Positions 837 to 29,137 are shown, counted from the stretch's first letter. The stretch: DNA of 64,000 nucleotides from an uncultured Eubacteriales bacterium (GCA_942492735.1 OW818648.1:2245591-2309590), one strand, 5' to 3'. Notes: generated by a model not told the origin, from the letters alone. Translations and numbers: made by a program.

Positions 837-867
837 CAGGCTGATCCTTTCTGAAATTCTTATATGC

Positions 868-1518: not shown

Positions 1519-1585
1519 AGTGGTTTCCTTATGTTGAAGTAGTATTCAGTATATGTTCCATTCTGTTTCGTGCCATTGATATTAT

Positions 1586-1957
1586 TTAAGTTGAAGCGGC
1601 CTGTGCGTCTCGTGACAGTTGTTTGACAAAATGCAGCAGGGAATCAGAAAGTAGCACTTTTGTCTCTTTCGGGTAATAGAAGTGGCCGGAATCCTTGGCA
1701 ATCATGATGCTGACATTTTCCATTTCACCAAAATACCGCAGTGACTTGATACTGACGGTTTCGTCGTACGCAGATTGCACGACGACAAGAGGAAGTGACA
1801 AATGACTGATGAGCCTGCGTGTGTGTCTGCTTTTGAAGAAGAGCTCTGCAAAGCGCGGCAGAGCCGTCAGATAGCTCAAGATATCGGGCGCCCGGACGCT
1901 GTTGCTGTTTTCTGCGGCAGCGCTGATTTCGATTTTGACATCTTTTTGAATGAGAGA
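1586..1957 (-). pseudogene. Remnant of an alpha/beta-hydrolase gene, carrying only the C-terminal ~125 codons
   Basis: The open frame encodes only a C-terminal hydrolase-like segment (…SIMIAKDSGHFYYPKETKVL). No in-frame ATG start exists and an in-frame stop lies about 80 nt upstream. Only about 90 nt separate it from the neighbouring gene. Confidence 0.3.
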
Positions 1958-8658: not shown

Positions 8659-9717
8659 TTAATGACCGTTATGAATCGGCTGATACGGACTATACGGCTG
8701 TATTGCGACAACCGCATCGGCAATGGTCTTCGCGAGAACGGTACATCCGGTATTGTTCGGATGAAAACCGTCTTTATAAAAGTATTGGTCGTTTTCAGCG
8801 CTGGCGCTGTACCAGTCTGCGATGATCGTATTGGCGAATTCTGCAACGACCTTCGTAAACGTTTTGTTGTCACCCTCACACCACGATCTCGGTACCCGGC
8901 AATTGACAAAGACGAGCTTTCTATCTTTTCCGATGAGCTCAATGAGCGCGCGCACATCGGTTTCCTTCACTGTGCCATTCGTTCCGAGTCCGATAACAAC
9001 GGTCGAGCTCAGCTTTTCTTCCTGCAGTAATTTCTCAATGATACTCTTTGCCTGATAAAACTGTCTTGAGGCTTTCGCATCGATATACATATTGGGAAAG
9101 TACTTCTTCAGATACGGCGCGACGCCGGCCCCAACCGAATCTCCGATGAAGGTGACGCTGAGATCGCACGGAAACGTGATTTCTAACGGAACAGGTGTAT
9201 AGACTGTTGCGGTGTCGATTTCTATGATGCTACTCTCCTGTATATACCTGACGTCAAAGTTGATCGCGGCGGCAATATCGCGAAGCTTTATAAAGTTGGA
9301 TTCACAGATGATATATGCTGTCAGGCTGAGCTTTACCCCGTCGAGATAAATATTAGATGACGTCGCCGTCGCGGCGACGCTCTCGGCGAATTCGGATACC
9401 TTCATCTCCGTTCCGGCCGCGGTGTAGGCCGCGTTGGAGATTAAGTCGACCTGATTATTCAAATCGCTATACGACACCTCAAACTGCTTGGCTGTACCGC
9501 TGAGCGCATAAGCGATGTCACGCAGTTTGAAATAGTTGCTGCCGTTTATGGTGTAGGCTTCGAATTCCTGCTTCACTCCGTTGATGAATACCGGAGATGC
9601 TGTCGGTGTCGCCTGAACAGCCGCGGCCTCAGCCGACTGAACAACAACGGAAAACAGCAAGGCGATGACGGTAAACATACATAGGATATTTTTTATTCGT
9701 TTCACTATTAACCTCAA
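8659..9717 (-). CDS. Secreted SGNH/GDSL hydrolase paralogue (same architecture as 7443..8534)
   Basis: Signal peptide, two copper-amine-oxidase-like repeats, then an SGNH domain with FIGDSVGAG…DGFHPN. Confidence 0.7.
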   Translation of the reverse strand: MRLIVKRIKNILCMFTVIALLFSVVVQSAEAAAVQATPTASPVFINGVKQEFEAYTINGSNYFKLRDIAYALSGTAKQFEVSYSDLNNQVDLISNAAYTAAGTEMKVSEFAESVAATATSSNIYLDGVKLSLTAYIICESNFIKLRDIAAAINFDVRYIQESSIIEIDTATVYTPVPLEITFPCDLSVTFIGDSVGAGVAPYLKKYFPNMYIDAKASRQFYQAKSIIEKLLQEEKLSSTVVIGLGTNGTVKETDVRALIELIGKDRKLVFVNCRVPRSWCEGDNKTFTKVVAEFANTIIADWYSASAENDQYFYKDGFHPNNTGCTVLAKTIADAVVAIQPYSPYQPIHNGH

Positions 9718-9740
9718 AATTTACCTCATTTATCTGGCTT

Positions 9741-11768
9741 TCAGCGTATCGGCATATACGGCTTGTAAGGCTGTACTTTATATATCGCATCAGCAATAAT
9801 CTTCGCCAGGATGGGAGAACCGGTGCTGTTCGGATGAAAACCGTCTTTCCAAAAGTAATCGCTTCTGTCAAGACTGACATCATACCAGTTGGCGACTGTT
9901 GTATTGTCGTATTCGGCGGCAATTTTCGTCAGCGTACTGTTGACCGCATCACACCAGGATCTCGGCACCTGTGTGTTGACAAAGACGATCTTTCTGTCAC
10001 TGCCGATCAGTTCAATCAGCGCGCGCATATGCGCTTCGGATACCGTTCCGTTGGATCCGAGCTCAATAACAACGGTTGACCACAGTTTGTTTTGCGCTAT
10101 CAATTCACTGATAATATTTTTCGCTTGATAGAACTGTCTGCCAACTTTAGCGTACATGTACATATTGGGATAATACTCCTGCAAGCTCGGGGCGATGTCG
10201 ATCGCTATCGAGTCGCCGATGACTGTGATGCAGAGGTCGCTCGGCGTTATGACTGCTGGTGCGCTATCAGGTGAAGCATCGGAGGCCTCTGGCGATGGGC
10301 TTGCTGTGGGCGGCTCCGGACTATCTGTTGGGTTCGCCGGACTGCTCGATGGAGAAGCCGAGGATAACGATGTATCCGTCGACGGACTCGTTGTCGGCGA
10401 TGGGCTTATTGACGGCGGCGGACTTGTTGTCGGCGCCATGCTTATTAACGGCGGCGCTGAAGAGGCTTCCGCATTATTTTGAGGCGTAATAATCATCTGC
10501 GAGGGTAAAGCGCTAAGTTCGTCCAAGCCTGAATTCGGCACAGCCTGTGCATTGAGAAAACCGGCGCCTGATACCAGTACCAGCGTGATTACCAGCAGAG
10601 CGGCCGTTTTTTCCCACCAACGCGTATGCAGGCAGCTCGAACAAAAATCACGGAAAGAGCTCTTTTTGAAGGATTTGATGATCTGACTCTTGCGAATCGG
10701 CATTTCTATAAGGTAATAAGAGACCGTTGCCAGCAGAATAGTCGCGGCAACCTGACAGATGCTCAGTATCACATTCAGTTTATTTGATGGCATCATTGTA
10801 TTCGAAATGATAATCACGGGAAACTGCCATAAATAAACGCCGTAGGATATTTTGCCGATAAATCGCAGCGGCCTTAAGCCAAAGAATTTTCCGATGACCG
10901 TGGTGGGACTTACAACTGCTGCGATGAGCACGCAAGAAGCGATGGAGAAAACGAACATGCCGCCGCGGTAAAGAAAATCGTCATACTGCGTCATATAGTA
11001 ACACATAAATATGATGCCGAAAAGCGCAATGAAACCAGCGATACTCGATATGAGTCGCGTATTCCTTTTTTGCATCGCTTCCGTAATCTTTTTGCTCGGA
11101 AAGGCGAACGCCAGACATGCGCCGAGCAGCAGGGAGAAAACACGGGTATCCGTGCCATAATAGATGCGGCTTGGGTCGAATCCCGGCTGATAGAGCACCG
11201 CCATGAGTGCACCCGATATAACAGCGGCGACGGCAATAACCGTGATCTTAATCCAGTTCTTTTTTATGAACCGCTGTAACAAGAGCATCAAAAAAGGCCA
11301 AACGAGATAAAACTGCACCTCAACGGCAAGCGACCAGAAGTGATTTAGAAGAGAAGGTGTCGCAAAAGAGGTGAAGTACGGAATGTCGTTGAATATGTAC
11401 CACCAATTACTGGCGAAAAACATAGCCGGCAGAAACTCGGATTTCAAGTTCGCAAAGAGGTCGGGGCGAAAAACCGTGACATAAGCAACAAGGCATATCA
11501 GCAGAAAAAACACACTTGGCAGGAGTCTTTTCCCACGCCGGATAAAGAAACTTTTCAGATTGATTTTGTTGTCTTTTGCCCACTCAGTCTGCAGTATATC
11601 GGTGATCAGATATCCTGAAAGCACAAAAAACAGCGTCACGCCTAGAAAACCGCCGGGGACAAACGGCAAGCCCAAATGATACGCAATAACCGCAAATACA
11701 GCTAAAGCCCGGAGGCCGTCAAGCCCGGGCATGTAAGAATTTTTTTGAATCGTTATATCTGTCATCAA
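9741..11768 (-). CDS. oatA: OatA-like O-acetyltransferase: acyltransferase-3 membrane domain, Pro/Ser/Thr-rich linker, C-terminal SGNH domain
   Basis: About 10 transmembrane helices with an acyltransferase-3 pattern, a low-complexity PSPTTSPS linker, and a C-terminal SGNH domain (VIGDSIAID…KDGFHPN). This matches the peptidoglycan O-acetyltransferase OatA architecture. Confidence 0.75.
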   Translation of the reverse strand: MMTDITIQKNSYMPGLDGLRALAVFAVIAYHLGLPFVPGGFLGVTLFFVLSGYLITDILQTEWAKDNKINLKSFFIRRGKRLLPSVFFLLICLVAYVTVFRPDLFANLKSEFLPAMFFASNWWYIFNDIPYFTSFATPSLLNHFWSLAVEVQFYLVWPFLMLLLQRFIKKNWIKITVIAVAAVISGALMAVLYQPGFDPSRIYYGTDTRVFSLLLGACLAFAFPSKKITEAMQKRNTRLISSIAGFIALFGIIFMCYYMTQYDDFLYRGGMFVFSIASCVLIAAVVSPTTVIGKFFGLRPLRFIGKISYGVYLWQFPVIIISNTMMPSNKLNVILSICQVAATILLATVSYYLIEMPIRKSQIIKSFKKSSFRDFCSSCLHTRWWEKTAALLVITLVLVSGAGFLNAQAVPNSGLDELSALPSQMIITPQNNAEASSAPPLISMAPTTSPPPSISPSPTTSPSTDTSLSSASPSSSPANPTDSPEPPTASPSPEASDASPDSAPAVITPSDLCITVIGDSIAIDIAPSLQEYYPNMYMYAKVGRQFYQAKNIISELIAQNKLWSTVVIELGSNGTVSEAHMRALIELIGSDRKIVFVNTQVPRSWCDAVNSTLTKIAAEYDNTTVANWYDVSLDRSDYFWKDGFHPNSTGSPILAKIIADAIYKVQPYKPYMPIR

Positions 11769-12202
11769 ATATTTTCCTTATTAAACAAACCGCCGTCTGT
11801 ATCATATTTCGTCACTATTCTACTAGACTTTCACCAAAGAGGAAAGTATTAATTTAAGAAATAATGAAAAAATTTGAAAGCCAAATAATGCATTGCTGTA
11901 ACGCCATAGAAAAAAGGCCTGACGCTGCATTAAGCATCGAGCCTCTTTTGAATAATTGACTGTCGTTTCCATTATATGATGTCGTCTGAATCTTTGTGCA
12001 TGGGTCAGTATTGATGACGTGTCTCAATGCCCCAAATTTGTAATTGGAGAATATTGTTTATTGCACGGATGCGACCAGCTGTCTTTGCGCCGTTCACCAG
12101 AGGCGGATATTGAGCAATATAGAGCAAATTTGACATATTATATTGCATATTGACTTCAGTTCGATTATACTAGTAACAAATTGTAACAACTTGGTGATTT
12201 AT

Positions 12203-13435
12203 ATGAAACTGATATCCTCAAAAAGGAAAAATGTAATATTCGCATGGCTGCTGACGTTCGCCCTTGTTATTGGCATGGGCTTTACGCCATTTGCGACGTA
12301 TGCCGAAGCCGTCAGTAAATCAGAAATAAATGCGCTGAAGAAGCAGCAGGAACAACTCGCGGCGGAAAAGGCCGAAATTCAGAAACAGGCGGATGTAGTC
12401 AACGGCCAAGTAGCTTCTCAGACAGAAAAACTAACCATACTGACTGTAAAACTCGATGTTACGAATCAGGAGATCGAAAATCTATCCCAACAGATCGGTA
12501 TATACACGAATTCCATAGCAGAAATGGAAAATGAACTTAACAACTACGAGCTGCAGCATCAGCAATTATTGGAAAAGTATAAGCAGCGCATACGAATAAT
12601 GGAAGAAAATGGCACGATTTCATACCTCGCCATCTTGTTTGACGCAACCAGCTTTACAGATATGCTGAGCCGACTCAATTACGTTAAAGAAGTCATGGAT
12701 TATGATAACGGCCTTATCAACGATGTCCAGGCTGCCAAAGAACAGGTAACAAATGCAAAAGCGGACATGGAAGGCGAGATGGCTGACCAGCAGATCGTCT
12801 TCGCGTCCTATCTGGACAAGCAGGCTGACCTTGACGTCCAGCAAAAGGAAGTACAGACGATCCTTTCAAGCCTGACGGCAAGTTCGGCGGATTACGATCA
12901 GCAGCTTGCATCCGTCAAATCAATCCAGTCCAAATTAAGCCAACAAATAAGTACTTTGCAGGAAAAACTGGCAGAACAAGAACGCATACTGGCGGAGCAA
13001 GCTGCTGCAAAGAAGCTCGCATTGGAGAAAAACAAATGGTATGGCGATGCGGTCGGAACAGGCACAGGACAGGACATCGTGGATCTAGCCAAGAAATTTC
13101 TCGGCATTCCATATGTTTATGGTGGGACCTCTCCATCCGGCTTTGACTGCTCAGGGCTTGTGTACTATTGTTACAAGAAGTTTGGCTATTCCATCAACCG
13201 CACCGCGTCAGCTCAGGCGTTAAATGGAACAGCGGTGTCGCCGTCAGAACTCAAGGTGGGGGATATCATCATATTCTCAGAGAAAAGCGGTAACTACATA
13301 GGTCACTGCGGTCTTTACATAGGGAACGGACAGTTCATCCATGCGCCCCATACCGGTGATGTCATCAAAATATCGAGCCTTTCGCAAGCTTATTACAAGA
13401 ATCACTTCTGGGGAGCCAGACGGATTATTAAGTAA
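12203..13435 (+). CDS. CwlO/PcsB-like peptidoglycan endopeptidase (coiled-coil N-terminus plus C-terminal NlpC/P60 domain)
   Basis: Signal peptide, about 280 aa of heptad-rich coiled coil, then an NlpC/P60 catalytic domain (GFDCSGLVYY…HCGLYIGNG…HAP). The ATG at 12203 has a GGTGA ribosome-binding site; the track's alternative start is 12143. Confidence 0.75.
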   Translation: MKLISSKRKNVIFAWLLTFALVIGMGFTPFATYAEAVSKSEINALKKQQEQLAAEKAEIQKQADVVNGQVASQTEKLTILTVKLDVTNQEIENLSQQIGIYTNSIAEMENELNNYELQHQQLLEKYKQRIRIMEENGTISYLAILFDATSFTDMLSRLNYVKEVMDYDNGLINDVQAAKEQVTNAKADMEGEMADQQIVFASYLDKQADLDVQQKEVQTILSSLTASSADYDQQLASVKSIQSKLSQQISTLQEKLAEQERILAEQAAAKKLALEKNKWYGDAVGTGTGQDIVDLAKKFLGIPYVYGGTSPSGFDCSGLVYYCYKKFGYSINRTASAQALNGTAVSPSELKVGDIIIFSEKSGNYIGHCGLYIGNGQFIHAPHTGDVIKISSLSQAYYKNHFWGARRIIK

Positions 13436-13528: not shown

Positions 13529-15285
13529 CTAAAACAAGTAATTTTCCTTCAGATTGAACTGACTGATAAGGTTTTCCAACATCTGAGACTGGCTGGAGAG
13601 TTCTTCGCTGGCTGCAGCACTTTCTTCAGCTGTTGCAGAGTTGGTTTGTACGACGGTTGCAATCTGTTCGACACCGATGTTGACTTGCTTAATGGAATTT
13701 GCCTGTTCTTCGCTGGTATCTGCAATATACTGAATAATGTCTGACAACTTCTCGGTGTTCTGAACCACGACATCCAGAGATTTTGCGGTTTCGGATACAA
13801 TGACAGTACCCTGTTCCACCGCTTTTATGGATTTATCAATAAGGGTAGCTGTCGTTTTTGCACTTTCCGCAGATTTTCCAGCCAAGTTTCTCACCTCGTC
13901 GGCTACAACCGCAAAACCTTTACCTGACGAACCTGCTCTTGCTGCTTCAACCGCAGCATTCAGAGCAAGTATATTTGTCTGGAAAGCAATATCATCAATG
14001 ACTTTTATGATTTTACCAATCTCCCTGGACGTATCACTGATTTCGTTCATGGAGGTAATCATCTGTTGCATTTTTGCTTTGCCATGTTCGGTGGCATTGC
14101 TGGACTCTATGGAAATTTGTTTAGCGCTCGCCGCACTTTCTGCTGTTTTAATAACCTGGGAAGAAACCTCGTTAATAGTTGCAGAGAGCTCCTCAACGGA
14201 ACTTGCTTGTTCGGTTGCTCCCTGGGCAAGTGCTTGTGCCCCAGATGCAACTTGATCTGAACCTGTTGCTACCTGATCTGCGGCAACGCTGATTTGTGAA
14301 AGTGTTTGGTTTAACATGTCAGAAGTATTCGTTAAGGCTACTTTAATTTTGGCAAAATCTCCTTCGTAGGAGTTTTTGAAAATTAAGTCCAGATTACCTC
14401 TCCCTAATTCATCCAATAATTCCGACACCTCGTCGATGTAGTTGATGTACGCCTTGAGTCTGTTGGTGAGAAGACCCATGGAGCGCGCCAGCTGACCAAC
14501 CTCGTCCTTGCTGTTAATGTCAATTTTTGCGTCTAGATTCCCTTTGGCAAGATCTGAAGTCACACGATTAAGCTTTCCGATTGGCACAACGATACTAAAC
14601 ACAATGTATAACCCGAGTGCAACAGCAATTACGAGCGATATCACGATGATTATCGTCAGCTCGACAACAGACTTTTGAATGCTGCTTTCTACAAGAGATT
14701 TTTGCTGTGCAATGTAGGAGTCAATAAAGTCGGTATAGTTGCCTGTGCCGACAACCCAGTCAAAAGGCTTAAAAAAGAGAGAATATCCTCTTTTTGGCAG
14801 GGGCTCGGTTTCACCTGCTTTTGGAAAAGCGTAATCAGTATATCCTCCCCGCTTAACGCCTGTTCCTTAATAGCTTCAATAAAGGCGAACCCGTTGGCAT
14901 CCTTTGCGTTGGCGCGATTGGTCCCCTCGGTTTCTTTTCCCAATAAAACGACGCATGTTCCGTCGGTTTTATCTGCCCAAAAATAACCGCTTTCACCATA
15001 TTGCATATTTCGAAGTAGCGTAGCAGCAACGATTTCGGCTGCCGCCTTGGTATAAGCACCGGCTAAGCTTTGATCATAAACATTTTGCAAGACGGATATC
15101 GCAGATTCTGTTTGCTCCTTAATGTTTTTATCAAAATCATCACGAATTTGCTTGTCCAGCGTACTGAGAGACAACGTGTTTTGGGTATTCATCTTTTGAA
15201 TAGATATTATTGCGACGAATGAAATGGAAATAACGACAATGAGCATTAGAATAGCCATTTTTGTTTTAATCTTCAATGATTTCAT
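13529..15285 (-). pseudogene. Methyl-accepting chemotaxis protein (Cache-like sensor, HAMP, MCP signalling domain) split by a 1-nt frameshift near 14850
   Basis: ORF 14689..15285 carries the N-terminal transmembrane helix and Cache-like sensor. ORF 13529..14644 carries the second transmembrane helix, HAMP and the MCP domain. The downstream frame stays open back to about 14870 and reads …[40 protein letters not shown], which is Cache C-terminal sequence. The two frames meet at a cccc/gggg homopolymer at about 14846-14856. Confidence 0.55.
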
Positions 15286-15524
15286 TAAGTATTCGACCCC
15301 ACATATATGTTTTTAGCTGTTTGTTTCAACAGGCATATCAAAAAAATCTACCTTTTCATGATTACGAGTATAATCCAATAAAATCAACATATTCTCACAC
15401 TTTATGTGACGCGCCGATTCGAGACAAATGGCAGCAAAAACCCCTGTAAGCACAAAGCTCGCAGGGGTTTGTTAATGGTTTGATTATCTCTTATACTAAT
15501 ATTCGATTTAGATAGCGATGTGGT

Positions 15525-15560
15525 ACGCGCCGTTATTCCCGCCTGCGCGGGAATACCTAA
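15525..15560. repeat. Short palindromic element related to family 1 (ttattcccgcctgcgcgggaata)
   Basis: A 9-bp perfect stem around a tgc loop, sharing the attcccgc/gcgggaat arms of the element at 5421..5486. Confidence 0.55.
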
Positions 15561-15745
15561 GCGTTTGCACACCATGGTAAACGATCTTCAGGTAATCTCT
15601 GATTGTTGCGCCGATAATAGATTACCTTGAGATTTTTCGCAGGCTCAGAATGACAAACGCTAGTACTTAATTGCAACGACAGACGCCGGAATTTCAGAGC
15701 AATGACAAGGCAAGCCGGCCTTGCCGGTGCTTGTCGTCCGTAATT

Positions 15746-18700
15746 CTAAATCAGTCCTGATTTTTGCAGTAGATGCTGAACCATCACAGCGACCTCGGCG
15801 CGCGTCACATAGTCCTTCGGGGATAGCGTCGTTGCGCTTGTTCCGGTTGTGATACCCGCCTCGAGGCAGGCTGCAGCGCTTTGTCTCGCGTAGCTCGAAA
15901 CGTCCGCCCCATCGGTGTACTTTAAAAGAAGCGCGCTTACTTCGCTGTCTGTCAGGCTTATGCGAAGCCCGGCTAGCTTCATCGCATTGGCGATAATCGT
16001 CATCGCCTGTTCACGGGTAATCAGGTCATTCGGGCCGTAGCTTGTGCTGTCATAGCCGGATATGAGCGCATAGGCTGCCGCGGTGTCGACATCGCCGTTA
16101 AACCAGTCGGTCAGCGTTACATCGTCGAAGCTGCTTTCCGCTGTGCCCTTGGCAAGACCCAATGCTCTGACGATAATTGCCGCGAACTCTGCTCTCGTAA
16201 TGCTTCTGTCTGGCTCGAAGATGCCGTCACCGATTCCCGCGACGACCATTCTCGAGCCCATGTCGTTGATTGCCGTCTTTGCCCAGTTGTCTGTCACATC
16301 CGTAAACGTCACAGGGTTCCAGATGACGGAGTAGGTGCTGTTTGTCAGGCTGTTTATCTTTGCGTAATACTTGCCGTCGATCACAACGATCTGCGTCGGC
16401 ACATGGCGGAAGGTTCCGTCTGCGTTGAGTACGATGCCGGTTGTGATCTTGGAGGGGTCTACGCCGTCGGGTATGGCGATCGTGCGCTCCACATAACCGT
16501 TAAATTTGGATATTGAAATCGTCTTGTCACCGCTTGTGCAGGTGATTTCAAACTCAACGGGCTTTACAACAATTTGATAGCCGCCCTGGTTCGCCGTATC
16601 CTCTATAATCTTAACCGTATCCGCCGGCGGCTCGGCTATCTTGACGCTCACGTTGATGTCCTTGAGCTCGACCTGAGAGCCAAGCAGCGCCGAAACAGCG
16701 TCGATGTTGATCTGTGATGCCGGAAGTGTGTAGGTAACGGTTTCGGTTTTGATTTCGAGGGTTGCCTCTTTAGTTTCCATATTCTTGATTGTCTGCCCGT
16801 TCAGCTCGCCGACAACAACATCGGAACCCATGATGCCAGGGAGGGTGACCGTCGGCTTCTCGCCGCTGCTCTCAAGTAACTTATCCAGCTTCGTATCGTC
16901 AACGGTTATGGTCGTCGTTGTCTGTCCGCCGCTCGTCGTGGTGCTGGCTGTTCCCGCGTCCTGCCGCACGCCGTTGACTTCAACGACCGCGCTGCCAGAA
17001 GGCGTGCTGTCGTAGACGACCTGCGGCGTTACTGTAACCGTAACCGTCTTTGCCGCCGTCATAGTGCCGTCGTATGCCGTTATCTCCAATACATAGCTGT
17101 TATTCGTGTTGGTGTCGGTCGGGGTTCCGTATGATGGCGCTGTTCCAAAGGTTACGACGCCGGCAACGATGCTGAACTTTGCCGCGTCATCGCCGCCCGA
17201 AATGCTCCATGTAATCGCGCTTCCTTCCGGGTCCGAAGCCGCCGGGGTGAAGGCTGCCGTGCTGCCCTCAATAACGCTTATTGCGACACTTGTGGAAATC
17301 GCGGGTGCTTCGTTGACATTTGTGACGGTGATAGCCAAATCTTTTGAAGCAGTAAGATTTCCTCCGTCTTTTGCCACAACCAGAATGTTGTATACATTGT
17401 CTGCCCCGATGTCCTTTTTGTCCTCATAATTCGGAACGGCGTTGAAGGTTACTTTTCCGTCGCTGTCGATACTAAAGAGCGTTTTGTCCGCTCCGTCAAG
17501 GCTCCACGTAACCGTATCGCCCGCGTCAGGGTCTGTCCGTGTCGCGGTGTAGACCGTCCCTGTACCGTTCTCAGCAAAGCTAGCCGGATCTCCCGATGTG
17601 ATGCTCGGCGCTTCGTTGACCGCAGTGATTGTTATTGTTGCGGTTATGGCTGCGGAATTGACTGTTCCATCATAGGCCTTCCATGTGAAGCCGTCATTTC
17701 CGCTGTAATCGGCGGTGGCTATATAGGTAAATGTTCCGTTGGCATTAAATGAAAGTGATCCGTGGCTCGGACCAGTCCACAAGACATAGCTGAGCGTATT
17801 CCCCTCAGCGTCAGACGCATATGACGTCAGACTGTCGTTCAGCACGGTGTCCTCATTCGTTGTAAAGGTATGAGCCGTCACCGTGGGCGTGTCGTTGACG
17901 CCATTGATGGTGATGGTCAGGGTATTCCCCGTCGTGCCGGCGGAATCGGTCGCCTCAATCGTGAAGATATCGGGTACGGCTGCCGTCTGTTCATTCAGTA
18001 TCGCATTGCTGGTGGGAACATAGACGTAGGAACCGTTGCTTTTCACATACAGCGTACCGTAAATGCTGGCCTTGGAGACATTATAGGTAACACTGTCAAT
18101 GACAGTATCGCCCAATGTTCCGCCGTTGATTCCGTATCCTGTAATAGAGCCGGAATTCGCCGTTGCATCTATAGTTCCCATTACGCTGGGGAAAGTATCG
18201 TTAGCTGCCGTATCATTATAACTATGGCTGGCCGGATTAACCGTTGGGCCGCTGACTACTTTAACCGTAATCAGCAGCGCGTTACTGTTTCCGGCTGTAT
18301 CATCTACGTATACAAGCACAGCATAGCTGCCTGCGCTCAGCCCACCGGCGTTATTAATCAGCAAATTGGCTCCGGAAATTGTGAACTTGCTCATGTCGGC
18401 GCCGCCGATTAGTTGCCATCTGAGCGAATCGGTAAAGCCGGAGATTGTCGTTGCATCTGTTGCCGTCAGCGCACCCACAGTTGCACCATTTGTCGCCGCC
18501 GTCGTGCTTATGGTCAGAGTTGAGGGTGTTGTAACAGAAGGCGCTGTCGTATCGATAACAACAAGCTTAGTGCCTGCTGCCGACACATTTACAGCCGTAT
18601 CAGTCAAAGTGGCTGAAATTGTATAGCGGCCTGCCGCGTATGTATGGGCCGGAGCTGTGAAGGTGCCGGCTGCAATGGTGCCGGTAGCGTGAGCGGTGCC

Positions 18701-21694
18701 ATCACCGAAGTCCAGATCGACGCTTGCGCCCGTTTCGCCGCTGACGGTGATTGTTTGAGAGGGCGTCTTTGTAACGCCGTCATTATTGAGGTTTCCAATA
18801 TCCGAACTCATAGTAAGCGTCGGCGCAATGGGGTCGGTACTGTCCTGAGTAATTGTAACGCTTGCAGGTGCGCTATCATTGCCAACAGCATCCGATGCTA
18901 TAACAACAAGCGTATTTAAAGCATTCTGATTCAGATTCACACTTATGGAATAGCTGCCCCCGGTAGCAGTTCCGGTTGCTGTTACATTGCCGCCGGTAAT
19001 AGTAATCGTCGCTCCAACGTCTGCCGTGCCGTTGATTATAATATTGTCTGCGTTGATAGTTTGATTTCCTGTTGTAATAATCGTTAGCGTCGGATTTATG
19101 TTGTCCACCGTCGCGTTGGTCGTATCTGCTGCTGTTCTTGTATTACCCGCATTGTCCCTTGCTGTCACAGCAACATTTATGTTCGTAGCGTCAACGGTTC
19201 CAGCTGTTATCGTATAGGTCGCGGTCCATGTTCCGCCAGAATTTGTCGCAGCAACGGCGGCTCCTCCGCCGAATGCGCTGAAATCGACGTTTACACCCGA
19301 TATCGTGTCAGCGTTGTTGTCGCCGCCTGCGGTGTTGTTCCACGTTGCCGTCACGGTGTCGCCTATTTTATACGCACCGCCCGTTCCGCTTGCTCCGCTG
19401 ATAGAAATGCGCGCGTCTGTCACCGTGGGTGCAACGTTGTCCACTGTCGCATTCGTCGTATCGGCTCTTGTTGTGCTGTTGTCCGCATTGTCTTTGGCAG
19501 TTGCCGATACATTTTTATTCGTGCCGTCGATAGCTCCCGCGACTATTGTATATGTAGCAGTCCATGTCCCAGCTGAATTTGTCGCAGCAACGGCGGCTCC
19601 TCCGCCGAATGCGCTAAAGTCAACGGTTACCACCGAAATCGTATCACTGTTATTATCGCCGCCCGCGGTATTGTTCCACGTTGCCGTAACGGTGTCGCCG
19701 ATTTTATACGCTCCGCCCGTTCCGCTTGCTCCGCTGATTGAAATGTTACCGTCCGTCACCGTGGGCGCTACGCTGTCCACTGCCGCGTTCGTCGTATCGG
19801 CTGTTGTTGTGCTGTTGCCCGCATTGTCAGTTGCGGTTACCGAGACATTTCTATTCGTGGTGTCGAGGGCTCCCGCGACTATCGTATATGTAGCAGTCCA
19901 TGTCCCGGCTGAATTTGTCGCAACTACTGTGGCTCCTCCGCCGAACTGACTGAAATCAACGGTTACGCCTGATATCGTATCGCTGTTATTATCGCCGCCT
20001 GCGGTATTGTTCCACGTCGCCGTAACGGTGTCGCCGATTTTATGCGCTCCGCCCGTTCCGGTTCCGCCGCTGATGGAAATGCGCGCGGCTGTCACCGTCG
20101 GAGCGACGTTGTCCAACGTCGCATTCGTTGTATCGGCTGTTGTGGCAGCATTGCCCGCGTTGTCAGTTGCGGTTACCGAGACATTTCTATTCGTGGTGTC
20201 GAGGACTCCCGCGACTATCGTATATGTAGCGGTCCATGTCCCTGCTGAATTTGACGCAGCTACGGCGGCTCCTCCGCCGAACTGACTGAAGTTAACGGTT
20301 ACGCCGGAAATCGTATCGCTATTATTATCGCCGCCTGCGGTGTTGTTCCACGTTGCCGTCACCGTATCGCCGATTTTATACGCTCCGCCAGTGCCGCTTG
20401 CTCCGCTGATAGAAATGCGCGCGTCTGTCACCGTCGGCGCAACGTTGTCCACTGTCGCATTCGTCGTGTCGGCTTTTGTAGTGCTGGTCCCCGCATTGTC
20501 CGTGGCAGTTACCGATACATTTTTATTCGTGCCGTCGATATCCCCCGCAACTATCGGATATGTAGCAGTCCATGTCTCGGAATTATTTGTTGCAACTACA
20601 GAAGCACCGCCCCCGAATTGACTGAAATCTACAGTCACGCCTGTAATTGTAGCGCTATTATTGTCTCCAGCTGCGGTGTTGTTCCACGTTGCCGTCACCG
20701 TGTCGCCTATTTTAAACGCTCCGCCAGTGCCGCTTGCTCCGGCGATGGAAATACGCGCGTCTGTGACCGTCGGCGCGGCATTGCTGACTGTAATTCCGTT
20801 GCCGGTCAAGTCGGCAATAATGAGCGAGGCAGTGGTATTCGTATCCCAATCTTCCGCCGCGGCGAGATTATATGTAGTTCCGCCCGTTGAGCTTGTGCCG
20901 TTTTTATTCATTATCTGATTGACGGCGGCCTTGTCGAACGCGTTGAGCGTCACCGAAAAGTTGGTTGCACTGGTGGCAAACACATTACCAGAGGTAAGCG
21001 TGCACGTACTTCCACCCTCTCCGGTCAGCGTCAGTTTGTTGACAGCAATAGTGTCGCCAGTTGTCATGCCGCTGCCTGTTACTGCTAAAACGCCAGTGTT
21101 TGCATCATATGTTGCGCTCGTGATAAAGGGGGCGGCTTTTACGTCATCGATCTCAAGATCTTGAAAAACGACATACGAATCAGAAGTAAAGGTGACACTG
21201 GTAACATCGTTAAACGACGTCAGACCGGACTTCGTGATTAAGGTTTCATTCGCCGCGGTATATGGGATGCTGGTAACCATTCCGTTATAGTATACGGATA
21301 TCGTATAGCTGGGTTCTGCTGCATAATGATTTCCAGCAAACTTAAATCCGGTCAGATCAAAGGTATGCCCCGCTGCAACAGACACGGTAAAATCGACCCC
21401 GTTGTTTGCGTTGCGTGTTGAGCTAGCGTATATACCGGTTAAGGTAGTATTCGCATCGATGCTAAACCAGTTAGGAGTATATGCTGTTGAACCGTTAGCA
21501 AATGTAAATGTCTTGCCTTCGATGGGTCGTACAAAGCTGCCGCTTGCGGCATTAATGTCTTCGGGCGAATCATCTATAAATGTCACTGTCGTGACAATCG
21601 CCCTTGCCGGCAGCGTCAGCGCGGGCAAAAGGCAAATCACCAGCGCCAGAGCCATAAAAGTCGAGATTAGCTTTCGTGCAATTTTGGTTTTCAT
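15746..21694 (-). CDS. Giant S-layer-homology-anchored surface protein or adhesin (1983 aa): signal peptide, six tandem Ig-like repeats, cadherin-like and Ig-like domains, three C-terminal SLH domains
   Basis: The in-frame ATG at 21694 has a perfect AAGGAG ribosome-binding site and gives MKTKIARKL… plus a hydrophobic signal. There are six ~111-aa repeats (VAPTVTDARISISGASGTGGAYKIGDTVTATWNN…) and VNDTPTV/VNEAP cadherin-like linkers. Three SLH motifs follow (FTDV…NWA…, FDDV…, YTDG…). The longer track ORF that extends to 21916 overlaps the PadR gene. Confidence 0.85.
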   Translation of the reverse strand: MKTKIARKLISTFMALALVICLLPALTLPARAIVTTVTFIDDSPEDINAASGSFVRPIEGKTFTFANGSTAYTPNWFSIDANTTLTGIYASSTRNANNGVDFTVSVAAGHTFDLTGFKFAGNHYAAEPSYTISVYYNGMVTSIPYTAANETLITKSGLTSFNDVTSVTFTSDSYVVFQDLEIDDVKAAPFITSATYDANTGVLAVTGSGMTTGDTIAVNKLTLTGEGGSTCTLTSGNVFATSATNFSVTLNAFDKAAVNQIMNKNGTSSTGGTTYNLAAAEDWDTNTTASLIIADLTGNGITVSNAAPTVTDARISIAGASGTGGAFKIGDTVTATWNNTAAGDNNSATITGVTVDFSQFGGGASVVATNNSETWTATYPIVAGDIDGTNKNVSVTATDNAGTSTTKADTTNATVDNVAPTVTDARISISGASGTGGAYKIGDTVTATWNNTAGGDNNSDTISGVTVNFSQFGGGAAVAASNSAGTWTATYTIVAGVLDTTNRNVSVTATDNAGNAATTADTTNATLDNVAPTVTAARISISGGTGTGGAHKIGDTVTATWNNTAGGDNNSDTISGVTVDFSQFGGGATVVATNSAGTWTATYTIVAGALDTTNRNVSVTATDNAGNSTTTADTTNAAVDSVAPTVTDGNISISGASGTGGAYKIGDTVTATWNNTAGGDNNSDTISVVTVDFSAFGGGAAVAATNSAGTWTATYTIVAGAIDGTNKNVSATAKDNADNSTTRADTTNATVDNVAPTVTDARISISGASGTGGAYKIGDTVTATWNNTAGGDNNADTISGVNVDFSAFGGGAAVAATNSGGTWTATYTITAGTVDATNINVAVTARDNAGNTRTAADTTNATVDNINPTLTIITTGNQTINADNIIINGTADVGATITITGGNVTATGTATGGSYSISVNLNQNALNTLVVIASDAVGNDSAPASVTITQDSTDPIAPTLTMSSDIGNLNNDGVTKTPSQTITVSGETGASVDLDFGDGTAHATGTIAAGTFTAPAHTYAAGRYTISATLTDTAVNVSAAGTKLVVIDTTAPSVTTPSTLTISTTAATNGATVGALTATDATTISGFTDSLRWQLIGGADMSKFTISGANLLINNAGGLSAGSYAVLVYVDDTAGNSNALLITVKVVSGPTVNPASHSYNDTAANDTFPSVMGTIDATANSGSITGYGINGGTLGDTVIDSVTYNVSKASIYGTLYVKSNGSYVYVPTSNAILNEQTAAVPDIFTIEATDSAGTTGNTLTITINGVNDTPTVTAHTFTTNEDTVLNDSLTSYASDAEGNTLSYVLWTGPSHGSLSFNANGTFTYIATADYSGNDGFTWKAYDGTVNSAAITATITITAVNEAPSITSGDPASFAENGTGTVYTATRTDPDAGDTVTWSLDGADKTLFSIDSDGKVTFNAVPNYEDKKDIGADNVYNILVVAKDGGNLTASKDLAITVTNVNEAPAISTSVAISVIEGSTAAFTPAASDPEGSAITWSISGGDDAAKFSIVAGVVTFGTAPSYGTPTDTNTNNSYVLEITAYDGTMTAAKTVTVTVTPQVVYDSTPSGSAVVEVNGVRQDAGTASTTTSGGQTTTTITVDDTKLDKLLESSGEKPTVTLPGIMGSDVVVGELNGQTIKNMETKEATLEIKTETVTYTLPASQINIDAVSALLGSQVELKDINVSVKIAEPPADTVKIIEDTANQGGYQIVVKPVEFEITCTSGDKTISISKFNGYVERTIAIPDGVDPSKITTGIVLNADGTFRHVPTQIVVIDGKYYAKINSLTNSTYSVIWNPVTFTDVTDNWAKTAINDMGSRMVVAGIGDGIFEPDRSITRAEFAAIIVRALGLAKGTAESSFDDVTLTDWFNGDVDTAAAYALISGYDSTSYGPNDLITREQAMTIIANAMKLAGLRISLTDSEVSALLLKYTDGADVSSYARQSAAACLEAGITTGTSATTLSPKDYVTRAEVAVMVQHLLQKSGLI
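19100..20790. repeat. Five to six tandem copies of a ~333-bp coding repeat inside the adhesin gene (near-identical at the DNA level)
   Basis: Near-identical strings recur at a 333-bp period (for example ccgcccgttccgcttgctccgctgat, gtccactgtcgcattcgtcgta). The antisense ORFs 19305..19949, 20007..20285 and 20340..20621 are artefacts of this periodicity. Confidence 0.8.
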
Positions 21695-21734
21695 TTTTTT
21701 GCTCCTTATTCTTGTTTTCGGGGCTGCTGTCATC

Positions 21735-22292
21735 TTATTTTGCGGTAATTTCCGCCTTGATTTCTTCCATAAGCATTGCGTACTCGCGGCATTTGACGAG
21801 TCCCCAGCGGTGGGCAAAAACGGCTGATTGTAGCCGTCTGTCGTCCCCGGACAAGCCAGTCTTTCCAGTGAAATTATCGTAGTTTTCGCTGTAGTTGCCA
21901 ATAAGGCGATTTTCAAACGCCTTTATGTTGCGAAGCTGCGTGTCAATCAGACGCAGCTGCTCTTTCTTGGGCAGCGCGCCCGAGAAAAACAGCTGCATCA
22001 GAAACATGTCCCGTGAAATAAAGTCGTTCACGGAGTTTTTCGCGCCTGCAGTCAAGTAGGCCTCCCGCCCCTTGTCTGTGATAGCGTAAACCTTCCGGTC
22101 GACCGTTTCGCCTTTTTTAAGCTCCTTGAGCTCAACAAGCTCTTCCTTAACGAGTTTTTTCAGCGTTCTGTAAATCTGCGTCTGGTCCGCGGGCCAGAAG
22201 TATGAGGCCGACATGTCAAACAGCTTTTTGATATCGTAACCGGACAGAGGCTTCATGGACAAAAAGCCCATAATTCCATGCTCAAGCGACAA
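21735..22292 (-). CDS. PadR-family transcriptional regulator
   Basis: N-terminal winged-helix signature (HGYDIKKL…QIYRTLKKLVKEELV). It lies 40 nt upstream of the adhesin gene on the same strand. Confidence 0.8.
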   Translation of the reverse strand: MSLEHGIMGFLSMKPLSGYDIKKLFDMSASYFWPADQTQIYRTLKKLVKEELVELKELKKGETVDRKVYAITDKGREAYLTAGAKNSVNDFISRDMFLMQLFFSGALPKKEQLRLIDTQLRNIKAFENRLIGNYSENYDNFTGKTGLSGDDRRLQSAVFAHRWGLVKCREYAMLMEEIKAEITAK

Positions 22293-22504
22293 TCTTCACC
22301 CTCCTCGCCCAATATAGGACTTGTATTATTTTATATAATATGCGGAATGATGTCAAATGTTAGTTACATAACCAACTGAAAATACGGATTTGCCATAAAT
22401 GACTGAAACGCAAAATAAGAAAGGAGCACTTGACAAACAACGCCCAATATAGTAGCATTTCCGCTAAAGAGGAAAAAATTCGCTATAGTATTGTGGAGGC
22501 GCGA

Positions 22505-25969: not shown

Positions 25970-28033
25970 TTACGGCGCTGTTAACTGCACTGTGTTGGAG
26001 ACGAATTTGCCGTTTCCGAATACGTAGGTGATGGCGAAGTAATACGTTTTTCCGGATTCCAGACCTGCCTCTGCCGGAACGGTCGACCACCCCGATGAAC
26101 CGAAATCGGACAGTACGCAGATGTATCCGTCGTCGGGGTAAATCGGATTGGGGTTTGTCTCGGAAGCGACGACCTTGTAATAATGAAAGTCTTCATACGA
26201 CATTCCGTTATAAATGACGGTGCTGCCCGGTAGAGCTGACCAGTTAAACGACAGCATGCCGCCGTTGGATAGAACCGACAGCGCCGGAGATGAGAAGACT
26301 GGAGCCGTCGGGGCAGTGCAGCCCGGAATTGTGGCGGTCACTGTATTTGTGACGTATTTGCCATTACCAAAGACATATGTGACAGCGAAATAATACGTTT
26401 TCCCAGCTTCCAAGGTCGGAGACTTATTATAATTTCCCGCAGATGGATCGACGGACCAGCTGGACGAGCCAAGGTCGGAAGCGTAATACAGGTAACCATT
26501 ATCGGGATAGACGGGTGTTGAGTCCGTGAGCGAGGCGACGATCTTATAGTAGTTAAAGTCTGTATACGTCTTGCCGTTATATGTCACGGTTCGGTCGGGT
26601 ATGGATGTCCAGCTGAAATTCAGGGTATTGCCTGACGTTGAAACATTCAGCTGGGGAGCAGCCGCGGCCGGCGCCGTGCTCGGTGATGCCTCATTGTATA
26701 AAGGAACCGTCGTACTCACGGTATTTGTTGTGAATTTCCCGTTCTCAAACACGTATGTGATGGCGAAATAGTACTTAACGCCGGGCTCCAGCGTCGGCGA
26801 CTGGTTGTAATCGGTTCCGGACGGATCTACTGTCCAGCTTGACGTGCTGTATTTGGAAACGGCCTGCAGATAGCCGTTATCTGGATAGATGGGGGTCGGG
26901 TCTGTTTCTGACGCAACGACCTTGTAGTATGAGAAATTCTTATACGTTTTGCCGTTGAATGTAACGGAAGTACCGCTTAAAGGCGTCCATATAAACTTAA
27001 TCTTACCGTTTAAGACTGTCGCCGTTAAACCGGGGGAGAAACTACCGGATGGTGAAGGCGATGGCGAGGGTGACGGTGAGGGCGATGGAGATGGTGACGG
27101 TGACGGTGATGGTGACGGTGACACGTGGACCTCGGGCGTGGTGTTCGAAGGGGTGGCGCTGGGCGGAACCGTTTCAGAGGGGGACGGTGTTGTATCTGAC
27201 GGTTTTACCGACGGCGTTGCGTTTGTTGATGGAGTTGCTTCAGCTTGCGCCGCTTCCTGCAGGAGAGGCTTCGTTTGCTCATCGAGGCTGAGTTTGCTGA
27301 AAATCTCACTGATGGTGCTGTCCTTAATCTCCTGCAAGCTCATGGCGAAACCATAATCCTCAGCAAATTTGTGCAGGAGCAGCCTTCCGATAGAAATGTT
27401 GCTTGCTTTCGCTTCATCAATAAAGCGTGAATCATCGATATAGACCGTGACGATTTCTGCCGCCTCGTTTTTTTCTGCAGACTTCAGGATTTCCCGAAGC
27501 TGTTCTTCAGCTGTTTGGTCGGTTTCGGTATTATTCGGAGCAGCCGAAATGAATAGAATGGAGCTCGCCCCTAAGAAACCGTTCGCTTTAGCAAATTCGA
27601 CAATCTTATTAATGCCGTCGTTGATTGGCTTCGTTTTCAGGTCGAGCTGGTCAAAAATCATCTGCCCTGCGGCGTTTGCGAAAACAATATCAATGATCTT
27701 GTTTTCCTTGTTGATGCTCAGTTCGATACTGGGGTTGATATCAATTGAGATGACTGCCGCGCACGTTGCGTCGAACGACCCTTTCTTGTCAAGACCGAAT
27801 ATCCCAAAAATGACACCTGCGGCGACGAGGATAATAAGGAGTGCCGCTGCAAGGGCGCGAAAATCGCTCAGACGGAGCCGACGCATAGGCGCTGAAATGT
27901 CCTTATTTGAAAATGTGACCTGCTGGCCGAGCATATATTCGTTTTTTGTTTTAATAAGGACCATATCGCAGGTTTTGGTGAAAACGTACGTTTTGCTTTT
28001 TGAAATATCCATGATCGTACCGGTATGAATCAT
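25970..28033 (-). CDS. rsgI: RsgI-like anti-sigma-I factor: RsgI_N cytoplasmic domain, one transmembrane helix, (PS)n linker, three FN3-like extracellular repeats
   Basis: The N-terminus (MIHTGTIMDISKSKTYVFTKTCDMVLIKTKNEYMLGQQVTF) fits the RsgI_N pattern. It overlaps the upstream sigma gene by 4 nt (ATGA). A SPSPSPSPSPSPSPSPSPS linker is followed by three ~110-aa repeats (…TVTYNGKTY.DF.YYK(I/V)VAS.TD.TP(I/V)YPDNGY…YYFA(I/V)TYVF.NGK). Confidence 0.7.
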   Translation of the reverse strand: MIHTGTIMDISKSKTYVFTKTCDMVLIKTKNEYMLGQQVTFSNKDISAPMRRLRLSDFRALAAALLIILVAAGVIFGIFGLDKKGSFDATCAAVISIDINPSIELSINKENKIIDIVFANAAGQMIFDQLDLKTKPINDGINKIVEFAKANGFLGASSILFISAAPNNTETDQTAEEQLREILKSAEKNEAAEIVTVYIDDSRFIDEAKASNISIGRLLLHKFAEDYGFAMSLQEIKDSTISEIFSKLSLDEQTKPLLQEAAQAEATPSTNATPSVKPSDTTPSPSETVPPSATPSNTTPEVHVSPSPSPSPSPSPSPSPSPSPSPSPSGSFSPGLTATVLNGKIKFIWTPLSGTSVTFNGKTYKNFSYYKVVASETDPTPIYPDNGYLQAVSKYSTSSWTVDPSGTDYNQSPTLEPGVKYYFAITYVFENGKFTTNTVSTTVPLYNEASPSTAPAAAAPQLNVSTSGNTLNFSWTSIPDRTVTYNGKTYTDFNYYKIVASLTDSTPVYPDNGYLYYASDLGSSSWSVDPSAGNYNKSPTLEAGKTYYFAVTYVFGNGKYVTNTVTATIPGCTAPTAPVFSSPALSVLSNGGMLSFNWSALPGSTVIYNGMSYEDFHYYKVVASETNPNPIYPDDGYICVLSDFGSSGWSTVPAEAGLESGKTYYFAITYVFGNGKFVSNTVQLTAP

Positions 28034-28773
28034 TGCGCATTCGCCCCCTTTATGTACGATTCGATATACCCTTTTAAGATTTCCATGTCGCTTTTGAGAA
28101 TCAGATAAAGTGCGATGATGTACTTTCTGTTCTTTTCGACTGTTTTTCGGCTCAGGCTGAAGCTCGATAGGATCCCTGTTATTGGGAGTCGGCCGTCTTC
28201 ACTGAGTCTCGCGGAGAGCTTTTTATCCTCAAAAAGCTTTTTGGCAATGGCTGCGCACATCGCCCGGGTATCGGTGTGCTTCGGCGCGGATAGAACAAGC
28301 TCGTCAAAAGAGATGCTGTATCCTTGAAGAGAATTCTTGAACGATAATATTTCGTCCTGAATTTCAAATCGTTCTGTGAGGAGGAGCGGGGGATGAAAAC
28401 CGGCTGGCTCATAATCCTCCTCGCGATCATCTAAGAGGGAGGAGAACGGGTATTCCACGCCGAATCGCTTGTTTCTCCTGAAGTAGTCTATGACCCGTCT
28501 GTTGATGACAAGTCCGGCAAACCCAAGAAAATTCGGGTTCTTGCTGCTGTCAAAGACGTCAATCGCCTCATTGAAGGCTTCAAGCGCAACGCTGAATTCG
28601 TCGGTTGAATCTGCTTTTCGTCCCGTCATCCGCGATACAATCGACCGTATGTATTCCCAGTATGTCTTAATCAGATATTCTCTGATCTCGGTTTCACCGT
28701 CTCTCAGGCGATCAATCAGCTCTTCCGGCTCGAGTGAAAGACATTCGCTCTTAGTAGTCTGCAACATTCTCAC
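28030..28773 (-). CDS. sigI: RNA polymerase sigma-I factor (SigI-type sigma-70 family)
   Basis: …EYLIKTYWEYIRSIVSRMTGRK…EFSVALEAFNEAIDVFD…FLGFAGLVINRRVIDYFRRNK matches the SigI region 2 and region 4 pattern. It is immediately upstream of, and coupled to, the RsgI-like gene. Confidence 0.8.
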   Translation of the reverse strand: MRMLQTTKSECLSLEPEELIDRLRDGETEIREYLIKTYWEYIRSIVSRMTGRKADSTDEFSVALEAFNEAIDVFDSSKNPNFLGFAGLVINRRVIDYFRRNKRFGVEYPFSSLLDDREEDYEPAGFHPPLLLTERFEIQDEILSFKNSLQGYSISFDELVLSAPKHTDTRAMCAAIAKKLFEDKKLSARLSEDGRLPITGILSSFSLSRKTVEKNRKYIIALYLILKSDMEILKGYIESYIKGANAQ

Positions 28774-28964: not shown

Positions 28965-29137
28965 AAAACGATGTTTATAGGAGAATAGCGTGAAAAATGC
29001 TTTTCCCGCCCGGAAGAAACCGATTTGGCCGCCAAAAACGGTGGCGGTCATTTTCAAAGCGGATTGTATCCGCTTGAAAACACATCGATTTTTCCTAATT
29101 ATTTGTGCCGCCGCTTAGCGGCGGAATGGGGGTTATT
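28965..29137 (+). promoter_or_regulatory. Conserved ~175-nt leader element, copy B (homologue of 24896..25072), directly upstream of ku
   Basis: See copy A. It ends at GGGGGTTATT immediately before the ku ATG. Confidence 0.6.

Follow-up and report, generated by a model that had tools for sequence, protein, structure and literature searches.

The 64,000-nucleotide (nt) stretch analysed here, below called the window, comes from an uncultured Eubacteriales bacterium (GCA_942492735.1 OW818648.1:2245591-2309590). Its minus strand carries a gene for a PadR-type regulator, padR, followed by a gene for a very large secreted protein that ends in three SLH domains and is referred to as the adhesin. The features of this locus are given below in the order of transcription, with lengths in amino acids (aa) and the basis of each assignment in brackets.

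22328..22356, minus strand: sigma-70-type promoter-like site, TTGACA (22356..22351), 17-nt spacer, TAAAAT (22333..22328) (best match of the region, 11/12)
22313..22330, minus strand: putative PadR operator, 18-bp imperfect palindrome AATAATACAAGTCCTATA (conserved palindrome, family consensus TATAaGACAAGTCtTATA)
21735..22292, minus strand: padR, predicted winged-helix regulator of PadR subfamily 1, 185 aa (Pfam, homologue alignment)
21695..21734, minus strand: padR-adhesin spacer, 40 nt, carrying AAGGAG at 21707..21702 (sequence reading)
15746..21694, minus strand: adhesin coding sequence, 1982 aa plus stop codon (sequence reading)
21599..21694, minus strand: Sec-type signal peptide, aa 1-32, predicted cleavage after ARA (inspection: basic n-region, hydrophobic core, AXA)
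21110..21598, minus strand: N-terminal tip, aa 33-195, all-beta jelly-roll resembling a carbohydrate-binding module (confident structure model)
20777..21109, minus strand: module 2, aa 196-306, beta-rich, about 110 aa, no Pfam family (homologue matches)
19097..20776, minus strand: five tandem repeats of 112 aa (336 nt), aa 307-866, part of the stalk (Tandem Repeats Finder, direct extraction)
16994..19096, minus strand: stalk of Ig-like and cadherin-like domains, aa 867-1567, in the order Big_6 (877-948), Big_13 (957-1049), VCBS-like region and Cadherin_4/Big_9/Cadherin_5 (about 1258-1357), with two further cadherin-like units bounded by VNDTP and VNEAP motifs (Pfam, NCBIfam)
16310..16993, minus strand: pre-SLH module, aa 1568-1795 (228 aa), conserved alpha/beta, no Pfam family (start of the 3' arm of the cassette described below)
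15749..16309, minus strand: three SLH domains, aa 1797-1847, 1856-1907 and 1926-1977, wall anchor (Pfam, PDB sequence and fold)
15433..15470, minus strand: probable intrinsic terminator of the operon, made up of a GC-rich hairpin and a following UUUUUG, about 280 nt past the adhesin stop (folding)

The product of padR matches the Pfam PadR family with E 9.7e-14 (51.6 bits against a cut-off of 27). The gene is read from the TTG at 22292, with a ribosome-binding site GAGGAGG at 22306..22300, to the TAA at 21737..21735. In the public gene call (P0121) the protein has 173 aa and the conserved N-terminus MSLEHGIMGFLS is cut off. Among 30 homologues of 181-202 aa the N-terminal sequence MSLE.GI is conserved, with M1 and L3 invariant, and because these relatives begin in this way and the GAGGAGG site is present, the comparison favours TTG 22292 over the public start. 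Tyr20, Tyr42 and Lys67 of Bacillus subtilis PadR (5x11), the DNA-binding signature of the PadR family according to PMC5728393, align with Y19, Y41 and K67 of the window protein, and both tyrosines are invariant across the 30 homologues. The alignment with 5x11 covers residues 3-136. That with Vibrio cholerae AphA (1yg2_A) is full-length, residues 1-182 against 1-175, at E 6.4e-14, on which ground the protein is assigned to subfamily 1; with the subfamily defined as in PMC5728393, every sequence-level criterion places it there. PadR of B. subtilis and AphA share with the window protein a size of about 180 aa in two domains, an N-terminal winged helix, a C-terminal helical domain, the Tyr/Tyr/Lys DNA-contact residues and a palindromic site in the promoter beside the regulated gene. 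However, identity to them is only about 25-30%, as estimated by eye from HMMER alignments, and their targets are a decarboxylase, an efflux pump and virulence regulators, whereas the target considered here is a giant surface protein. No other copy of padR or of the C-terminal adhesin module was found in the window.

For the adhesin, the ATG at 21694..21692 has an AAGGAG sequence seven nt upstream (21707..21702). A second in-frame ATG at 21733, one base past the padR stop, has no ribosome-binding site. The public protein P0001, which is 100% identical, is called from this second codon and is 13 codons longer (1995 aa). A mechanically derived open reading frame (ORF) of 2056 aa at 15746..21916 on the minus strand begins with a TTG and extends over the 3' end of padR. 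Relatives of the adhesin start at the equivalent methionine with the same signal peptide, 28-65 nt past their own padR, and the homologue alignments therefore favour ATG 21694 over the public start at 21733. The DNA similarity to two related loci (L002 and L004) spans padR and ends exactly at the end of the signal peptide at 21599. The signal peptide itself, MKTKIARKLISTFMALALVICLLPALTLPARA, is conserved in the downstream proteins of related cassettes, its counterpart in P0105 being MKNKITKKLISTFMALALVISLLPPLTLPATA. A preliminary description made from the DNA alone had placed padR directly upstream of the adhesin, ending 40 nt before its start, had taken ATG 21694 with its ribosome-binding site as the true start of a protein with a signal peptide, and had regarded the longer ORF as a read-through that overlaps padR. 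The homologue data agree with this layout; only the stated length of 1983 aa has to be changed to 1982, the former number counting the stop codon.

The region between 16 and 22 kb of the window shows a raised GC content and AT skew, which most likely reflect the Thr/Ala/Gly-rich composition of the protein. The GC content at third codon positions (GC3) is 0.45-0.69 in segments of the adhesin and 0.30-0.66 in the neighbouring genes. As the former values are within or marginally above the neighbour range, a recent horizontal transfer, judged by composition, was rejected.

At the C-terminus of the adhesin Pfam SLH (PF00395) matches in three stretches (E 1.3e-26; 92.7 bits against a cut-off of 20.8), and the motifs ITRAEF, ITREQA and VTRAEV (TRAE/TREQ/TRAE) can be read in the translation. 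The region aligns to the SLH domain of Bacillus anthracis Sap (3pyw, 6bt4) at E of about 3e-9, with one alignment covering aa 1796-1972. An AlphaFold2 model of aa 1568-1982 is of low confidence, with a mean predicted local distance difference test score (pLDDT) of only 65. In Foldseek comparisons the SLH part of this pLDDT 65 model matches 3pyw, 6bt4 and 7sv6 with target-normalised template modelling (TM) scores of 0.66-0.73; 6bt4 is Sap bound to a pyruvylated wall-polymer unit and 7sv6 is SpaA. These matches in sequence and modelled fold support anchoring of the adhesin to the cell wall by its SLH domains, as had been proposed in the preliminary description. In sequence and fold, the adhesin has in common with Sap and with Paenibacillus alvei SpaA/SlhA a single wall-binding unit built of three SLH repeats in tandem and carrying TRAE-type motifs. 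In contrast to these proteins, the SLH unit of the window is C-terminal and preceded by the conserved 228-aa pre-SLH module, and in place of an S-layer lattice domain the passenger is a tip-bearing stalk of 1500 aa. The pre-SLH module has no Pfam match, and its model (pLDDT 65) no fold match in the PDB. Together, the pre-SLH and SLH parts form a C-terminal module that is 55-79% identical in relatives of the cassette type.

The stalk upstream of this module contains known domain families. Cadherin_4 matches in two stretches (E 5.6e-21; 75.3 bits, cut-off 25.1), Big_9 scores 49.1 bits (cut-off 23.6) and Cadherin_5 42.7 bits (cut-off 26.5), and NCBIfam gives matches of the tandem-95 and VCBS type. 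The cadherin-like and Ig-like segments of the preliminary description are thus recovered by Pfam as Cadherin_4, Cadherin_5, Big_9, Big_6 and Big_13, and the domain annotation it had suggested as a check (SLH, Big, Cadherin-like) returned all of these families, with the SLH profile at the C-terminus. Its six near-identical Ig-like repeats were recovered in part. The repeats are indeed in tandem, but there are five of them; Tandem Repeats Finder reports a single array (19100..20776, period 336 nt, 5.0 copies, 83% matches), and the pairwise identity of the copies, 77-88% for the protein and 73-88% for the DNA, is not that of near-identical units. Neither sequence nor profile comparison connects them to Ig-like domains. 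No Pfam family matches the 112-aa repeat at E<=10 save for a spurious NifU_N match, no PDB sequence matches, and homology to the Big_6/Big_13 region (hhalign probability <1%) or to module 2 (no profile relation found) was rejected. An Ig-like fold of the repeat is plausible as a guess for a beta-rich tandem unit of this length. Its best homologues are arrays in proteobacterial DUF4347 proteins, 64-81% identical.

Module 2, for which a Pfam search gave no match, and the tip point in the same direction. With aa 33-306 as the query, matches cover about 43% at 50-70% identity and are mostly proteins named DUF4214 or 'beta strand repeat-containing'. The tip, which on the basis of its modelled fold is presumed to be the ligand-binding end of the adhesin, has as its best structural match a putative carbohydrate-binding (ligand-binding) module of an Aeromonas salmonicida RTX protein (9q5u). 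Its family (aa 33-199) is rare, with 16 representatives at E<=1e-3 among 1.84 billion proteins. Members are found at the N-terminal end of SLH proteins (P0352, P0358) and also just after DUF4347, or at the start, in giant DUF4347/DUF4214-type proteins named from Proteobacteria (P0354, P0357, P0359). The tip domain occurs in none of the fetched loci of cassette paralogues, and no close relative of it was found in metagenome contigs.

A strong promoter-like site is located only upstream of padR, and a TTGACA...TATAAT-like pair is seen at this position in most related loci. Directly downstream lies the putative operator, which overlaps the last bases of the -10 box as well as the point where transcription is predicted to begin. 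Its family palindrome, TATAaGAC-AA-GTCtTATA, was derived by aligning by eye the 130 nt upstream of padR in 29 loci, and in nearly all related loci it lies past the -10 box and ahead of the padR ribosome-binding site. In 23 of the 29 upstream regions at least 14 of its 18 positions are found, in most cases 13-25 nt ahead of the start codon, a score that composition-matched shuffles attain in 17 of 5800 cases. The copy at 22313..22330 has one mismatch and is the sole close match in the 64-kb window, where 0.33 matches with <=3 mismatches would be expected. A second candidate operator, ATGT-N5-ACAT abutting the -35 box, is not conserved in other loci and was rejected. The placement of the palindrome, as judged from its position relative to the predicted promoter, is that of an autorepressor operator. 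This position also bears on the option that PadR is an activator that turns the adhesin on, like AphA of V. cholerae, to which it aligns over its full length and which was deposited as a 'gene activator'. A palindrome conserved on the -10 box and predicted start would suit a repressor, rather than an activator binding upstream of the -35 box, and most characterised PadR-family members are repressors released by an effector (PMC5728393), so that activation is considered very unlikely.

In the 40-nt spacer between padR and the adhesin no terminator-like site was found. The hairpin at 15433..15470 has a predicted folding energy of -20.2 kcal/mol (z = -3.7), and 0 of 200 shuffles fold as well; another hairpin close to the adhesin stop (15709..15725) was rejected as a terminator in view of its z of -1.4 and the absence of a U run. 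The approximately 280 nt between the adhesin stop and the strong terminator (15471..15745, minus strand) are free of ORFs and Rfam matches and do not resemble the 3' flanks of other cassettes; a scan of the whole window gave no RNA family that reached the Rfam threshold.

A scan of one genome per species returned 65 loci with a padR homologue. In about 27 loci from related Clostridia the padR homologue is followed by a gene for a large secreted surface protein with the same signal peptide, mostly after a spacer of 28-65 nt. The padR genes of the Clostridia loci are 43-74% identical to that of the window, and in nearly all cases the next gene on the same strand opens with the same type of signal peptide. 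Three of the homologues (58-70% identical; L001-L003) have a giant secreted protein encoded 38-42 nt downstream in each case. The hosts include [Clostridium] viride, Oscillibacter valericigenes and metagenome-assembled Sporobacter, Papillibacter, Lawsonibacter and Oscillospiraceae. In seventeen distinct loci the same strand also encodes a C-terminal module of about 415 aa, with 50-77% identity to aa 1568-1982, and the loci without this module still encode surface proteins with Ig, cadherin, fn3 or TIG domains. More distant padR homologues, from Chloroflexota, Armatimonadota, Bacteroidales and others, have unrelated neighbours and no surface-protein gene of the cassette type. At the DNA level the similarity of the window to related loci is limited to 22342..21599 and about 16990..15747. 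The first arm, shared with L002/L004, begins at the operator and closes with the final codon of the signal peptide, and the second reaches from the pre-SLH module to the stop codon. By these comparisons the locus is a member of a cassette family of Oscillospiraceae-like Clostridia, from gut and sediment, in which the ends are conserved and the middle is exchanged.

Taken together, the sole strong promoter before padR, the terminator-free 40-nt gap, the ribosome-binding site of the adhesin itself and the strong terminator after it support a single operon of padR and the adhesin, as do the restriction of the operator-like palindrome to the padR promoter and the order of padR and a surface-protein gene in about 27 related loci. 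The regulated operon of the preliminary description is therefore retained, with co-transcription inferred. We consider it likely that the locus is a two-gene operon of padR and a fibrillar adhesin, repressed by PadR and belonging to a cassette family with exchangeable passengers. Transcription would start at the promoter at 22356..22328 and end at the hairpin near 15433..15470. A PadR dimer, composed of the winged-helix N-terminal domain and a C-terminal dimerisation/effector domain, would bind the palindrome at 22313..22330 and, since this site overlaps both the -10 box and the start of transcription, shut off padR and the adhesin gene alike until an effector releases the repressor. The adhesin would then be exported by the Sec pathway and cleaved after Ala32. 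Its SLH unit would bind pyruvylated wall polymer, while the approximately 1370 residues of tandem beta-rich modules (aa 196-1567) would form a stalk that presents the N-terminal jelly-roll at a distance from the cell, where it would bind a ligand that is probably a glycan.

Several observations weigh against this proposal. The family palindrome is unlike the operators of PadR and LmrR, which typically have the form ATGT-N8-ACAT. No pyruvyl-transferase gene (csaB) was seen among the ORFs scanned in the 64-kb window. A tip relative encoded on a contig from a fermentation metagenome (L069, 2597..3820), 50% identical, is preceded by a winged-helix regulator that by inspection is MarR-like and not PadR, and the tip domain itself is thus not tied to PadR. 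Furthermore, weaker promoter-like hexamers occur within the 3' end of padR, at 21901..21873 (TTGGCA, 17 nt, GATAAT; 10/12) and at 21854..21827, and the adhesin could accordingly have its own promoter. The two genes would in that case be adjacent but independently transcribed, with PadR regulating only itself or distant targets. The region as a whole holds 22 promoter-like matches against 11.2 in shuffled sequence, but chance matches of this kind are expected within coding sequence, and no operator-like site precedes the adhesin. The spacing of 28-65 nt and the same-strand order are moreover kept in the roughly 27 loci while passenger and flanking genes vary, and where a 5' arm is duplicated (L022/L023, see below) the duplicated unit consists of promoter and padR and ends just past padR. 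Independent transcription is thus regarded as unlikely, and the single repressed operon is preferred.

The final point against the proposal concerns the tip, whose likeness to carbohydrate-binding modules is at the level of the fold only (10% identity, Foldseek TM-scores of 0.3-0.5). This, together with the lack of a Pfam match to any recognised adhesive domain family in the protein, would fit a structural role, in which the large protein is a surface protein associated with the S-layer or biofilm matrix, or a spacer that shapes the envelope, instead of a ligand-specific adhesin; true S-layer proteins such as Sap are indeed found among SLH proteins. In fibrillar adhesins, as described by Monzon et al. 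2021 (PMC8286594), a single polypeptide has its binding domain at the distal N-terminus, followed by stalk domains in tandem and an anchor at the C-terminus, and SLH is among the listed anchors, in 72 detected proteins. The window protein has the same layout, with tandem stalk domains (Big_6, Big_13, Cadherin_4, Cadherin_5, Big_9 and the five repeats) between an N-terminal jelly-roll tip and a C-terminal SLH anchor at the opposite end. This layout, the putative ligand-binding module of an RTX protein as the best structural match of the tip, and the occurrence of tip and stalk modules in giant proteobacterial repeat proteins (DUF4347, DUF4214) argue against a merely structural role, which we hold to be improbable. 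The window protein departs from the fibrillar adhesins of PMC8286594 in that Pfam has no family for its tip, nor for module 2 and the five repeats, which make up about half of its stalk; a domain-based screen of that type would therefore see only a part of the adhesin.

How the middle of the cassettes is exchanged can be considered from paralogues within one genome. The uncultured Sporobacter chromosome OY776214.1 carries two cassettes 1.7 Mb apart (L022 and L023). Their 5' arms are 99.6% identical over 730 bp, comprising promoter, operator and all of padR and ending just past padR, and their 3' arms are 90.9% identical over 1685 bp, comprising the C-terminal module and 3' flank. The 3.4-5.6 kb between the arms are without similarity, and the passengers, of 1480 and 2280 aa, are unrelated. 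This points to gene conversion of the arms or swapping of the passengers. Loci L019 and L021 show the same two-arm pattern across genomes. In L014 the 5' arm of a second padR (16122..16318) begins about 230 nt past the adhesin gene of the first cassette, giving tandem cassettes. On an 11-kb Logan contig (L001) the cassette is located between genes for a phage-type tyrosine integrase (594..1787) and a large serine recombinase (9465..11042), and may be carried on a mobile element. No viral contig encoding a PadR of the window type was found, and an association of the cassette with phage was rejected on this basis.

A further reaching interpretation, which we put forward tentatively as a possibility and not as the expected outcome, is that the padR-adhesin unit represents a modular system for surface-protein diversification in Oscillospiraceae-like Clostridia. 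The 5' and 3' arms would serve as recombination handles by which passengers, including modules used by giant proteobacterial repeat proteins, are swapped among paralogous cassettes and species. Each cassette would have its own ligand-responsive PadR switch, and the adhesin repertoire would depend on conditions. Since the operators are nearly alike, paralogous PadRs might cross-regulate.

The giant proteobacterial DUF4347/DUF4214 proteins with RTX repeats (PF00353) share with the window protein the tip family (P0354, P0356, P0357, P0359), module 2 and the 112-aa repeat, at 45-81% identity. They have an N-terminal DUF4347, or a C-terminal DUF4214 with RTX repeats, but no SLH anchor, no Sec signal peptide of the window type and no upstream padR. 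Their RTX repeats lead us to presume export by type I secretion. SLH proteins of Clostridia and giant proteobacterial DUF4347/DUF4214/RTX-repeat proteins thus have three adhesin modules in common, namely the tip, module 2 and the 112-aa repeat (P0016, P0031, P0116, P0354, P0359). The identity is unusually high, up to 79-81% over the repeat array, yet the GC3 is host-like.

On the regulatory side, LmrR-lmrCD, Listeria LftR, LadR and others provide precedents for a PadR gene beside or co-transcribed with its target and autoregulated through its own promoter, with transporters or membrane proteins as targets (PMC6624303, PMC4534193); the target in the window is an SLH surface protein. A literature search gave nothing that joins PadR with the SLH domain and, within the library searched, only PadR repressors of transporters or membrane proteins. 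Within that literature the pairing of PadR with an SLH adhesin and the cassette structure appear undescribed. The CWP family of Clostridioides difficile likewise consists of paralogues that join one conserved wall-binding module to variable domains, although these proteins are anchored by CWB2 in place of SLH, and the switching of cwpV depends on inversion of DNA and not on a repressor. We know of no dedicated PadR in front of each CWP gene. Every component of the cassette is ordinary and works in a known way, and no concept is overturned. What is modestly novel is the combination, in one conserved PadR-operator-adhesin cassette, of presumably recombining arms with four module families that Pfam lacks.

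Other genes of the window include a methyl-accepting chemotaxis protein gene (13529..15285, minus strand; sCache_2, HAMP, MCP signalling) that is split in two ORFs by a frameshift near 14860, past which the Cache domain is read on in the downstream ORF's frame; the gene is a pseudogene, or else the frameshift is a sequencing error. At 25970..28773 on the minus strand lies a SigI/RsgI-like pair, in which an anti-sigma factor (25970..28033) with RsgI_N and RsgI_M domains and a weak CBM_5_12 match follows a sigma-70 region 2 protein (28030..28773). In cellulolytic Clostridia, pairs of this kind serve to sense polysaccharide outside the cell. A small cell-envelope cluster is suggested by two ORFs of about 350-360 aa without Pfam match (7443..8534 and 8659..9717, minus strand) that adjoin genes for a 675-aa Acyl_transf_3 protein (9741..11768) and for a hydrolase of the NlpC/P60-PcsB-like type (12143..13435). 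On the plus strand (29105..30885) a Ku gene adjoins a gene for an ATP-dependent DNA ligase, a pair that serves non-homologous end joining.

Guts, digesters and sediments harbour Oscillospiraceae and their relatives in abundance, but most of these bacteria are uncultured, and their attachment to substrates or partners is little understood. If the proposed organisation is correct, the cassette of padR, operator, signal peptide, passenger, pre-SLH module and SLH domains would allow adhesin genes to be found and their boundaries to be mended in metagenome-assembled genomes, and one palindrome with one repressor would offer a regulatory handle for testing. It would also draw attention to four module families without a Pfam entry, namely the tip, module 2, the 112-aa repeat and the pre-SLH module, and document the sharing of adhesin modules between SLH-anchored proteins of monoderm bacteria and giant repeat proteins of Proteobacteria.

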